Assembly: GCA_963843145.1 (NCBI GenBank)
Contig: CAWJJC010000022.1
Coordinates: 384,001-448,000, forward strand
Direction: 5' to 3'
DNA from: an uncultured delta proteobacterium
Lineage (GTDB): Bacteria > Desulfobacterota > RBG-13-43-22
Length of the DNA: 64,000 nt
Below, piece by piece: positions 24,726-26,516 of this stretch. Below the pieces are notes generated by a model. It was not told the DNA's origin. It did not search any database and was given only the letters and a program-made list of their open reading frames with translations. Each line of letters begins with the position of its first letter. Positions within the stretch are counted from its first letter, which is position 1. A program made the position numbers and the translations under genes.

Positions 24726-25406
24726 TTGAGGGAACTTTTTAAAACCCTACCCAAGGCCTTCCTGTTTTTTCTAATAACCGCGGCGCTGTTTTCTTGTCGT
24801 TCCTTCCTGCCGGCCGAAAAAGTGGTCTCTGCCCCGCCGCCCCCTTTAAAGCAGGGATTGCCGTCCTCTTTGGCCGTTCCTCCCGAGGCCGCACCCGCGG
24901 AAGATATCCCTCCCCTGGAACCTCGAAAACCGGCCGCTGTCAGGAAGCCTCCTCTGCTCCCTCCTCCTTCGATCGCTCTCTCGGAAGAATGGTTGATCGT
25001 GATTAAAAAAGGGAAACGCAAGCTTAACCTTTACCGGGATTGCCGGCTGGTTAAAACGTTTCCCATTGATCTGGGGGAAAACCCCCAGGGCCCCAAGCTT
25101 TGTCAGGGAGATATGCGGACTCCCGAGGGCTTGTATCGAGTCATCGAAAAAAAAGATCGGGGACAGACCAAATATTTTATGGCCCTGCTCTTGGATTATC
25201 CCAACGAACAGGACCGGGTGAGGCATGATTTGGCGGTCAGGAAAGGAAAAATTCCATCCGAAGCCGGGCTCGGTGGGTCAATCGAAATACATGGGGAAGG
25301 TCGAGGAGAGGATTGGACCTATGGTTGCGTCGCCCTCTATAATCAGCATATGACCGAGCTTTTTAAAAACATTCCCCCCGGCACCCCGGTCTTGATTGAT
25401 CCATAA
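24726..25406 (+). CDS. L,D-transpeptidase (YkuD) family lipoprotein
   Basis: Lipobox-like 'LFSC'; 'GDMRTPEG', 'IEIHG...WTYGC'. Confidence 0.85.
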   Translation: MRELFKTLPKAFLFFLITAALFSCRSFLPAEKVVSAPPPPLKQGLPSSLAVPPEAAPAEDIPPLEPRKPAAVRKPPLLPPPSIALSEEWLIVIKKGKRKLNLYRDCRLVKTFPIDLGENPQGPKLCQGDMRTPEGLYRVIEKKDRGQTKYFMALLLDYPNEQDRVRHDLAVRKGKIPSEAGLGGSIEIHGEGRGEDWTYGCVALYNQHMTELFKNIPPGTPVLIDP

Positions 25407-25501
25407 ATTTCTTCCCCCATGGCCTTTTCTTAGGGTCCCTCTTGCTTGACTAAATAAGAAGAATGATTATCATTTCAATAAATATGTTATTGGAGGGATA
25501 A

Positions 25502-25717
25502 ATGCCGATTTACGAATATAATTGTCTAGATTGTTCTAAGACCTTTGAAAAGATTGTTTGGAATACCGAGGAGAAAGAGGTATGTTGCCCTTATTGCCAG
25601 GGGAAAAATAACCTTCGTGTTCTTTCAGGTTTTTCCAAAGGGAGCGGGGGGATCAAAGGTATTTCGGCTGCTTCCAACTGTGGTCCCTCCAGCGGCGGGT
25701 TTTCCTGAGCCCATTAA
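25502..25717 (+). CDS. FmdB-family zinc-ribbon protein, possibly with Sec at TGA 25706 (ends at 25708 if the TGA is a stop)
   Basis: 'MPIYEYNCLDC...CPYC'; the TGA is followed by Ala-His-TAA and a SECIS-like hairpin. Confidence 0.88.
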
Positions 25718-25719
25718 AC

Positions 25720-25736
25720 AGGAACCGTGGGTTCCT
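25720..25736 (+). promoter_or_regulatory. Candidate bacterial SECIS hairpin 1
   Basis: AGGAACC-GTG-GGTTCCT perfect 7-bp stem; G-first loop starts 18 nt after the TGA. Confidence 0.65.
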
Positions 25737-25750
25737 AAGGAAAAACGACT

Positions 25751-25903
25751 ATGAAGACGGTAATTTGGATGGTGGTGATTTTTGGGGCCTGGTATTTAAT
25801 CAATCGCTGGATACTGCCTAAAATGGGGGTTCCTACCTGAATGGCCCCAAACTCCTGCCAGGTTCCTGGCCGGGACAATAAAGGGGCCGATAAACCGCTT
25901 TGA
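25751..25903 (+). CDS. Candidate 50-aa membrane-anchored selenoprotein (not in ORF track)
   Basis: AAGGA RBS; MKTVIWMVVIFGAWYLINRWILPKMGVPT-U-MAPNSCQVPGRDNKGADKPL*; TGA at 25838 followed by a GCCAG-GTTC-CTGGC hairpin whose loop starts 21 nt downstream. Confidence 0.65.
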
Positions 25904-25919
25904 TGGATCCAGGGGGATT

Positions 25920-26516
25920 TTAGGGGGATGGTTGGGCTTGGTCCTTCTTGGGCCCCTGAGCATTGAACTCATTCATAGCCCGTTCAACGCCGTCCCGGAG
26001 TATCATTTCCAAGGCCAAGCCGGCTTCCTCCACCAGTTGTTCCATTTCCGCACGCCGGCTTGCCGGGATTGTTTCCAGCACGTATACTTCCGGCGGTTGA
26101 TCTCCGGGGGGGCGTCCTACACCCAGGCGTAGTCGGACAAAAACGTTGGTTTGCAGGTGTTCGATCAGGGAAAGGACCCCTCGGTGGCCCGCTGCTCCGC
26201 CTTTGGCTACGATCCGTATTCGGCCCCAGGCCAAATCCAAATCATCGTGGACCACCACCAACCGCTCGGGGCTGCTGTGAAAATAGCGAACCCAGTGACC
26301 GACCGCCACCCCGCTTAAATTCATATAGGTCTGGGGAAGAAGGAGGTGAACTTTATGTCCCTCAATGTTTCCCTGACCGAAAATACTTTGAAATTTTTTT
26401 TGATTTAACGAAATTCGATGATTCTGGGCCAGGGTTTCAATCACCCTGAAGCCCAGATTGTGGCGGGTAAATTGATATTTTCGACCTGGATTCCCTAAAC
26501 CGGCAATCAGGTACAC
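25920..26516 (-). CDS. pth: Peptidyl-tRNA hydrolase
   Basis: 'GLGNPG..Y..TRHNLG', 'PQTYMNLSG', 'HDDLDL', 'GHRG'. Confidence 0.95.
   Translation of the reverse strand: MYLIAGLGNPGRKYQFTRHNLGFRVIETLAQNHRISLNQKKFQSIFGQGNIEGHKVHLLLPQTYMNLSGVAVGHWVRYFHSSPERLVVVHDDLDLAWGRIRIVAKGGAAGHRGVLSLIEHLQTNVFVRLRLGVGRPPGDQPPEVYVLETIPASRRAEMEQLVEEAGLALEMILRDGVERAMNEFNAQGPKKDQAQPSP

Follow-up and report, generated by a model that had tools for sequence, protein, structure and literature searches.

Two short adjacent open reading frames (ORFs) on a 64,000-nucleotide (nt) stretch of DNA from an uncultured delta proteobacterium (contig CAWJJC010000022.1, positions 384,001 to 448,000 of the forward strand; the whole stretch is called the window below) are very likely genuine selenoprotein genes that would be decoded by the ordinary bacterial SelB/selenocysteine insertion sequence (SECIS) route. 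The first, gene 1, encodes an FmdB-family zinc-ribbon protein and the second, gene 2, a single-helix membrane micro-protein, and each contains an in-frame TGA predicted to specify selenocysteine (Sec, U). From sequence comparison, gene 2 is judged to be a member of a real, previously undescribed family with Sec and Cys forms, and gene 1 to hold an undescribed Sec position in a family already on record as containing selenoproteins. The decoding mechanism is conventional. The features of the pair are as follows.

25502..25717, + strand: gene 1, FmdB-family zinc-ribbon protein, 71 amino acids (aa) if the TGA is read as Sec
25706..25708, + strand: candidate Sec codon of gene 1 (codon 69), a TGA conserved in GF[ST]-type tails
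25720..25736, + strand: SECIS-type hairpin 1, AGGAACC-GTG-GGTTCCT, a perfect 7-bp stem abutting the gene 2 ribosome-binding site (RBS) at 25737-25741
25751..25903, + strand: gene 2, unannotated 50-aa single-pass membrane protein, terminal stop TGA at 25901-25903
25838..25840, + strand: candidate Sec codon of gene 2, one in-frame TGA being present here in all significant matches
about 25854..25874, + strand: SECIS-type hairpin 2, within the coding region, an 8-bp stem with one bulge

Gene 1 was assigned to the FmdB family by two profile models, TIGR02605 (51.2 bits, cut-off 31.3) and PF09723 (47.8 bits, cut-off 34.4). The four ribbon cysteines (residues 8, 11, 29 and 32) form two CxxC motifs and are all specified by Cys codons. 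The only TGA of the gene is codon 69, at the end of a Gly/Ser-rich tail with the layout C60-x8-U69-A-H, and the 3' end reads ...NCGPSSGGFS-TGA(25706-25708)-GCC-CAT-TAA(25715-25717). Gene 2 begins at ATG 25751, preceded by the RBS AAGGA (25737-25741), and reads MKTVIWMVVIFGAWYLINRWILPKMGVPT-TGA(25838-25840)-MAPNSCQVPGRDNKGADKPL-TGA(25901-25903), which gives an N-terminal helix, the motif LNRWxxPKxGxxT-U30-x5-C36 and a basic tail. The TGAs, tails, hairpins and RBS-led ORF claimed in a preliminary description of this DNA are all present, and its C-x8-U and U-x5-C spacings are correct. Its proposal that both TGAs are Sec codons is very probably right: both TGAs and the sequence downstream of them are conserved, and the genome has a complete Sec machinery.

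The assembly that holds the window comprises 5.3 Mb and is 98 % complete, and its nearest database relatives, going by their names, put the organism in the Thermodesulfobacteriota. The preliminary description had named the Sec genes as a point to confirm, and selA (609.4 bits), selB (368.8 bits), selD (395.3 bits) and a tRNA-Sec (75.1 bits; reported by ARAGORN as SeC with anticodon tca) were all found, every score lying above the curated cut-off. A genome-wide reassignment of TGA to Trp or Gly (codes 4 or 25), in which case neither residue would be Sec, has in its favour that W appears at the U position in 23 of the 150 best cluster representatives of gene 2; W is what a gene caller prints for TGA under code 4. 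This explanation is vanishingly improbable. A reassigned code is excluded because TGA also serves as an ordinary stop, terminating 1349 of the 3658 ORFs of at least 250 codons in this genome, and the complete Sec machinery stands against it as well. Moreover, the terminal stop of gene 2 is a TGA too, 60 nt past the candidate Sec codon, so that the codon would be used in both senses within one gene. At the site equivalent to this second TGA, relatives mostly have TAA or TAG. The selD gene of this genome is a selenoprotein gene too, with a single in-frame TGA within the 395-bit match (G000:C27:447576-448499, outside the window).

Searches with gene 2 covered 41 genomes, consisting of its own genome and 40 relatives. 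There were 25 matches at E <= 0.003, in 23 of the 41 genomes, and exactly one in-frame TGA was found at the same place in all 25, with identities down to about 30 % and some matches belonging to other families of the phylum. When 20 sequences were aligned, W14, P23, G26, the TGA position (U30) and C36 proved invariant, and a U-x4-5-C motif was conserved past the TGA. A word-indexed protein search returned 44 matches, mostly 29-30-aa products cut at the TGA, together with full-length Cys forms (...GVPTC[ML]SG[AS]C...). An exhaustive profile search gave 732 cluster representatives at E <= 1e-3; among the best 150 of these, the residue at the U position was Cys in 85, the protein end in 34, W in 23 and another residue in eight. 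The Cys forms mostly have a C-x4-C spacing (54 of 62).

Gene 2 matched no Pfam family at E <= 1, and its best NCBIfam match was an unrelated model with an E-value of 0.12. Seven Cys forms searched against Pfam and NCBIfam likewise gave nothing meaningful, with no Pfam family at E <= 1. The nearest protein Atlas cluster (score 0.88) is an unnamed 'hypothetical protein', and a search of 8000 candidates for longer relatives with a fused domain gave none, which is weak evidence. The absence of a family model, and the 29-30-aa products that gene callers give (most of the 44 matches and 34 of the 150 best representatives), would suit the explanation that gene 2 is not real at full length and that either a 29-aa peptide ending at the TGA or nothing at all is made. 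However, this is very unlikely given that U-x4-5-C is conserved past the TGA, that 85 of the 150 best representatives run uninterrupted with Cys at the TGA position, and that a SECIS-type hairpin is far commoner in Sec than in Cys forms (counts below). In public records the membrane protein is either a 29-30-aa hypothetical protein or uncalled.

For gene 1, the tail class was defined as ...C-x(5-9)-[G/R/K/S]-F-[S/T] in FmdB proteins at loci across the phylum. The first stop was TGA in 50 of 50 distinct FmdB proteins with this GF[ST]-type tail, a set biased by the inclusion of 30 loci (L073-L102) that were fetched because a TGA had already been flagged there. Two samples were drawn blind to the stop codon. 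In the first, the top-scoring loci L051-L072, TGA ended every GF[ST]-type tail; in the second, 80 loci chosen by protein similarity from a species-wide genome collection, TGA ended nine of nine such tails, whereas other FmdB tails ended in TGA (30), TAG (24) or TAA (21). The codon after the TGA was GCN in 48 of the 50 tails and TCN in the other two. The next in-frame stop lay two or three codons further on in 49 of 50, compared with 93 of 1348 ordinary TGA stops from the same genome used as controls. Such conservation of a GCN codon and a second stop would not be selected if the TGA ended translation, and gene 1 very probably ends in U-A-H.

The window's genome has six FmdB paralogues, and the GF[ST]-type tail occurs only in the window's copy. 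All-Cys paralogues have CxxC-x4-CS[ST]CH tails and end in any of the three stop codons. Intermediate tails, with the predicted Sec inside a Cys-rich tail, were found at L060 (CSTU-TSTN-CGSCH) and at L075, L093 and L099 (CxxC-AAT[ST]-C[AG]PS-U-[GS][GH]); the C[AG]PS element is common to these intermediates and to the CGPSS...FSU tail. Among homologues, the conserved TGA and hairpin that the preliminary description had proposed to look for were seen for both genes, and Cys at the TGA position was seen for gene 2; for gene 1 no GF[ST]-Cys form turned up.

Other FmdB tails also continue in frame past a TGA. They read ...SCQPTG-U-GI-stop, ...GGWGGG-U-R-stop, ...CCATPSR-U-STCA-stop, ...SACMTST-U-GIPQS-stop and ...CTPSGST-U-SHSHGGS-stop, and the loci with such alternative tails are L128, L131, L153 (Chloroflexota records), L141, L140, L190 and L117/L100. 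Tail Sec may be widespread in the FmdB family beyond the GF[ST] type.

Both TGAs are followed, as the preliminary description had stated, by SECIS-type hairpins, and these lie at the canonical distance. The loop of hairpin 1 (GUG) starts 18 nt past the UGA, the whole hairpin (-9.3 kcal/mol) lying 3' of the TAA stop, and the loop of hairpin 2 (GUUC) starts 21 nt past the gene 2 UGA. Both agree with the bacterial SECIS (bSECIS) consensus model as set out in PMC13188914, in which a loop of 3-9 nt has G in its first two positions, the upper stem is 4-16 bp, the distance from the UGA is 16-37 nt and the minimum free energy is <= -7.5 kcal/mol. When folding was compared with 200 shuffles, z was -2.22 for hairpin 1 (6 of 200 shuffles as good) and -2.14 for hairpin 2 (3 of 200 as good). 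It is the comparative evidence that carries the case, because each fold, taken singly, beats the shuffles by no more than about two standard deviations.

For the comparison, a hairpin was counted if it had a perfect stem of at least 5 bp, a loop starting 15-26 nt past the TGA and G in the first two loop positions. Such hairpins were present in 48 of 50 gene-1-type tails and 28 of 29 gene 2 Sec forms, compared with 272 of 1348 ordinary TGA stops. At metagenome loci of gene 2 they were present in 43 of 44 Sec forms, compared with 10 of 22 Cys forms. The two forms act as an internal control, by which constraint on the RNA can be told from constraint on the protein. The loops of the metagenome Sec forms were recurrent (CGUGC, GUC, GUU) and lay at 20-23 nt, whereas loops and distances were scattered in Cys forms. 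The stems of gene 2 are wholly different in sequence between lineages, with the structure kept. In gene-1-type hairpins, the loops were mostly GUG, CGUGA, GGU, GUC, GGUC or GUU and started 16-24 nt past the UGA.

RNAalifold, applied to a MAFFT alignment of 40 post-UGA segments, returned no structure. Since this alignment had put the hairpins of different lineages out of register, a subset of 17 in-register sequences with a named structure was used instead, together with the position-based counts given above. In this subset, four of seven stem pairs showed compensatory changes, and none of 500 shuffles reached the observed values.

Several observations weigh against reading both ORFs as selenoprotein genes. 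Of ordinary TGA stops, 20 % also pass the hairpin criterion, as do 10 of 22 GC-rich Cys forms, and all counts include related sequences, so that independence is overstated. The presence of selA in genomes with these TGAs carries little information because 371 of the 401 genomes sampled from the phylum have selA; its occurrence in ten of ten genomes checked for co-occurrence with the TGA forms is merely consistent, and of low power. Both TGA genes are present in G002, a genome of the same genus that is about 90 % complete, and no selA match was obtained there at E <= 1e-50. The hints of function come from gene neighbourhoods only, in contexts that vary by lineage. One Cys form, P0284, is fused via a linker to a complete thioredoxin domain (105 bits, WCSPC site); it lies on a single 1016-nt contig and may be a real fusion or an artefact of assembly or gene calling. 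The remaining points concern gene 1. Just two residues follow its UGA. No Cys was found at the U position of a GF[ST] tail in 120 listed database relatives, and no GF[ST]-Cys tail was found in the 80 loci, even with GFSCA[SH] as one of the two search patterns. Because there is no exact Cys form, the Sec/Cys correspondence of gene 1 rests on low-complexity tails that are not rigorously alignable.

The shortness of the extension and the missing Cys form would also be expected if the gene 1 TGA were an ordinary stop, giving a 68-aa FmdB protein, with the hairpin acting, for instance, on mRNA stability, in attenuation or on the RBS of the following gene. This is how the FmdB protein is entered in public records, a RefSeq entry among them, where it finishes at ...FS; in 93 of the 120 listed relatives the sequence closes exactly with ...F[STGR], and hairpin 1 does abut the gene 2 RBS in the window. 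However, an ordinary stop is unlikely. It would have to coexist with the fixation of TGA in these tails (50 of 50, and nine of nine in the second stop-blind sample) in a genome where TGA ends 1349 of 3658 long ORFs, and with the conserved GCN codon and second stop. A hairpin at the SECIS distance and with a G-containing loop is also kept where no gene 2 follows (for example at L059, L065, L073 and L077-L083), and it is absent from FmdB paralogues with Cys-rich tails that stop at TGA (L068, L107, L109).

Returning to the selenoprotein reading of both ORFs, we infer that Sec is inserted at both UGAs, and the two genes probably share one transcript. In gene 1, the ribosome would arrive at UGA69, where SelB with Sec-tRNA(Sec), acting on the hairpin at 25720-25736, would insert Sec; Ala and His would follow, and translation would end at TAA to yield a 71-aa FmdB protein with a flexible C60-x8-U69-A-H tail. 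In gene 2, UGA30 would be decoded via the in-frame hairpin at 25854-25874, giving a 50-aa protein with U30-x5-C36 placed about 12 residues from the membrane on its cytoplasmic face. This orientation is suggested by a charge bias: in 42 gene 2 members, Lys and Arg account for two of 56 residues in the N-terminal flank versus 140 of 1050 residues after the helix, which points to an N-terminus outside and a C-terminus, with U-x5-C, inside the cell. The motif is therefore predicted to lie in the same compartment as the signal-less FmdB protein.

The FmdB family was introduced as a new selenoprotein family in the Global Ocean Sampling (GOS) study, with two Sec sequences containing CxxU versus 807 Cys homologues (PMC2398784, Zhang and Gladyshev 2008), and Table 1 of a 2026 review lists it under TIGR02605 with the motif UxxU, two Sec and no accession (PMC13188914). 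The FmdB zinc ribbon and a predicted bacterial SECIS are common to the FmdB selenoproteins of PMC2398784 and gene 1. However, in the published proteins Sec lies in the ribbon (CxxU or UxxU), whereas in gene 1 the ribbon is all Cys and the predicted Sec is two residues before the stop. Table 1 of PMC13188914, which covers 119 families or subfamilies, includes neither a tail form of FmdB nor any small membrane protein bearing the gene 2 motif. Look-ups of single terms gave no passage on either Sec form in three further papers: the one on deep-Sep (PMC12013277) lacks 'zinc', 'membrane' and 'C-terminal', the one on BSepDB (PMC13326102) lacks 'FmdB', 'zinc' and 'membrane protein', and the one on Olavius symbionts (PMC1976440) lacks 'FmdB', 'zinc' and 'transmembrane' and has 'membrane' in unrelated use. 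A full-text literature search found no further description of either form in main texts; supplements, such as GOS Dataset S2 or BSepDB Table S2, could list one.

The name UXX-star stands for Sec, two residues and a stop codon, and the review that lists such families gives names and motifs only. By this name, these families have the same layout as gene 1, a layout in which the SECIS must lie past the stop codon. Two UXX-star families, NF041114 and NF041211, and a KCU-star family, NF033934, are entered in Table 1 of PMC13188914, where NF041114 is distantly glutaredoxin-like (Grx-like). Their domain differs from that of gene 1, NF041211 being gluta_UXX_star_2, and neither NF041114 nor NF041211 was among the NCBIfam matches of gene 1 at E <= 1. 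Elsewhere in the genome, NF041211 gave sub-threshold matches at G000:C32:53520-53711 and G000:C28:314356-314553, each with one in-frame TGA, and these are possibly further small selenoproteins. The CxxC_Se_CxxC family (NF041197; OS_HP3, 'hypothetical protein DW' in the text of PMC1976440 and PMC12013277) resembles gene 1 in being small with two CxxC motifs and one Sec. Going by the model name, its Sec lies between the CxxC motifs, unlike the tail position in gene 1, and the model matched none of 47 candidates in the genome; nor did it match gene 1.

Gene 2 was compared in the same way with known families. TsoA (NF045695, motif LULAxC) resembles it in having Sec a few residues before a Cys; it is a 144-position family that gene 2 does not match. 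A real, full-length TsoA gene is present outside the window on the same contig (G000:C22:127315-127746, 217.9 bits), with one in-frame TGA. FeoB-associated Cys-rich membrane proteins consist of an N-terminal helix and a short cytoplasmic tail that bears Cys, and gene 2 resembles them in this combination of helix and Cys tail. However, the core LNRWxLPxxGxxT[U/C]MSGxC is specific to the gene 2 family.

The preliminary description also regarded the two ORFs as a two-gene module. An FmdB gene lay directly upstream of gene 2 in 16 of the first 20 loci, all from the window's family (f1). The pair is adjacent in at least seven families of the phylum (f1, f16, f42, f71, f81, f98 and f104), in both orders: other families with the same order are represented by L056, L058, L064, L084, L089, L091, L092 and L101, and the reverse order is seen in L057 and four f16 genomes, where FmdB ends in AFSUAG or AFTUAA, and in f104. 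Adjacency was also found in L119, L150 and L290. Such adjacency, together with Sec near Cys in both proteins, the predicted cytoplasmic location of both motifs and the hairpin-RBS-ATG arrangement that the window shares with roughly half of the f1 loci, would fit obligate partners that form a soluble-to-membrane selenium/sulfur or metal relay, with SECIS 1 coupling translation of gene 2 to selenium.

However, obligate partnership is doubtful. Among 72 metagenome gene 2 loci, FmdB lay within 900 nt in one, with one more at 1.3 kb. Ten genomes have a Sec-tailed FmdB with no adjacent gene 2; a gene 2 was present elsewhere in two of them, and no match was found in the other eight, which are 95-100 % complete. 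Even within the window's family, the two genes of one genome (G006) are on separate contigs. The module as originally described is not supported on these counts. Nor is the proposed selenium-coupled translation through SECIS 1 and the RBS: the spacer between the genes is 33 nt here and reaches about 290 nt within the family, so that contact between hairpin 1 and the gene 2 RBS is not conserved, and in f16 and f104 the two genes stand the other way round. As a general rule, each gene can do without its neighbour. Cooperation of gene 1 with gene 2 in this particular lineage is possible, and we lean somewhat against it.

The neighbours of the pair differ between lineages. In the window they are GlgA, GalT and YkuD, with Pth, L25 and Prs on the opposite strand; in another lineage they are a Mrp/NUBPL-type ATPase, a CMD/AhpD-like protein and a D-Ala-D-Ala carboxypeptidase, and in a third NikR, a cobalt-type energy-coupling factor (ECF) transporter and thioredoxin. 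Beyond the pair itself, no neighbour common to all lineages was found. Where gene 2 occurs alone, one recurrent setting is an operon with the order rhodanese/YgaP, metallo-beta-lactamase-rhodanese, gene 2, TauE/SafE exporter and Pyr_redox_2 (pyridine-nucleotide disulfide oxidoreductase). This operon was scanned in L212, L213, L233 and L259, which span Sec and Cys forms, and the same ORF layout is present in L216 and L250. Elsewhere, gene 2 alone lies beside a molybdopterin oxidoreductase, a cupin and a rubrerythrin, or upstream of cytochrome-bd-like membrane proteins. Thioredoxin genes adjoin the pair or gene 2 in L208 and L280.

From its motif and setting, we infer that gene 2 provides a membrane-anchored selenol/thiol pair that is redox-active or ligates sulfur or metal. 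It would form a selenenylsulfide, or carry or ligate sulfur or metal, and be recycled by thioredoxin-type partners; the operons that hold it in other lineages are ones for handling persulfide and sulfite. The FmdB tail may be a second C...U arm that cooperates with gene 2 in this lineage. A wider scheme, which is speculative and rather unlikely in its entirety, would make the gene 2 family a widespread set of membrane Sec/Cys micro-proteins of about 50 aa that supply a membrane-proximal thiol/selenol arm for sulfur trafficking and export (persulfide dioxygenase-rhodanese, TauE/SafE, thioredoxin). Some of the Thermodesulfobacteriota would have added to this arm a dedicated soluble FmdB partner, with an apparently Sec-only tail, the two making up a Se-Se/Se-S relay on the inner side of the membrane. 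If true, such a relay would be the first mechanistic role assigned to FmdB, a large family without a known function.

Public records annotate both genes wrongly. If confirmed, gene 2 would be a selenoprotein family absent from Table 1 of the 2026 catalogue of 119 families (PMC13188914), with hundreds of Sec and Cys members across metagenomes. Gene 1, if confirmed, would define a common tail-Sec subfamily in a family for which Sec was known before, as far as the published FmdB entries cited above go, from two marine reads only; its tail form apparently lacks a Cys counterpart, an unusual situation for a selenoprotein. The operons around gene 2 would then make the part that small membrane proteins play in handling sulfide and persulfide accessible to tests.

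Few other signals were found around the pair. One promoter-like site lies upstream of gene 1:

25446..25473, + strand: promoter-like site TTGACT-16-TATCAT, a consensus match only

In the 900-nt region scanned, three promoter-like sites were present versus 1.3 expected, and no terminator-like site was found between gene 1 and gene 2. An Rfam scan of 25300-26100 gave nothing near any gathering score. Homologues of gene 2 lie beside an extracytoplasmic function (ECF) sigma factor or a zf-HC2 anti-sigma protein in L207 (G006), L215 and L222, which hints at stress-responsive expression of gene 2. Upstream of gene 1, the ORF at 24726-25406 encodes a YkuD-type L,D-transpeptidase (74.5 bits). Cell-wall enzymes accordingly stand beside the pair both here and, as the D-Ala-D-Ala carboxypeptidase, in other lineages, which may be coincidence.

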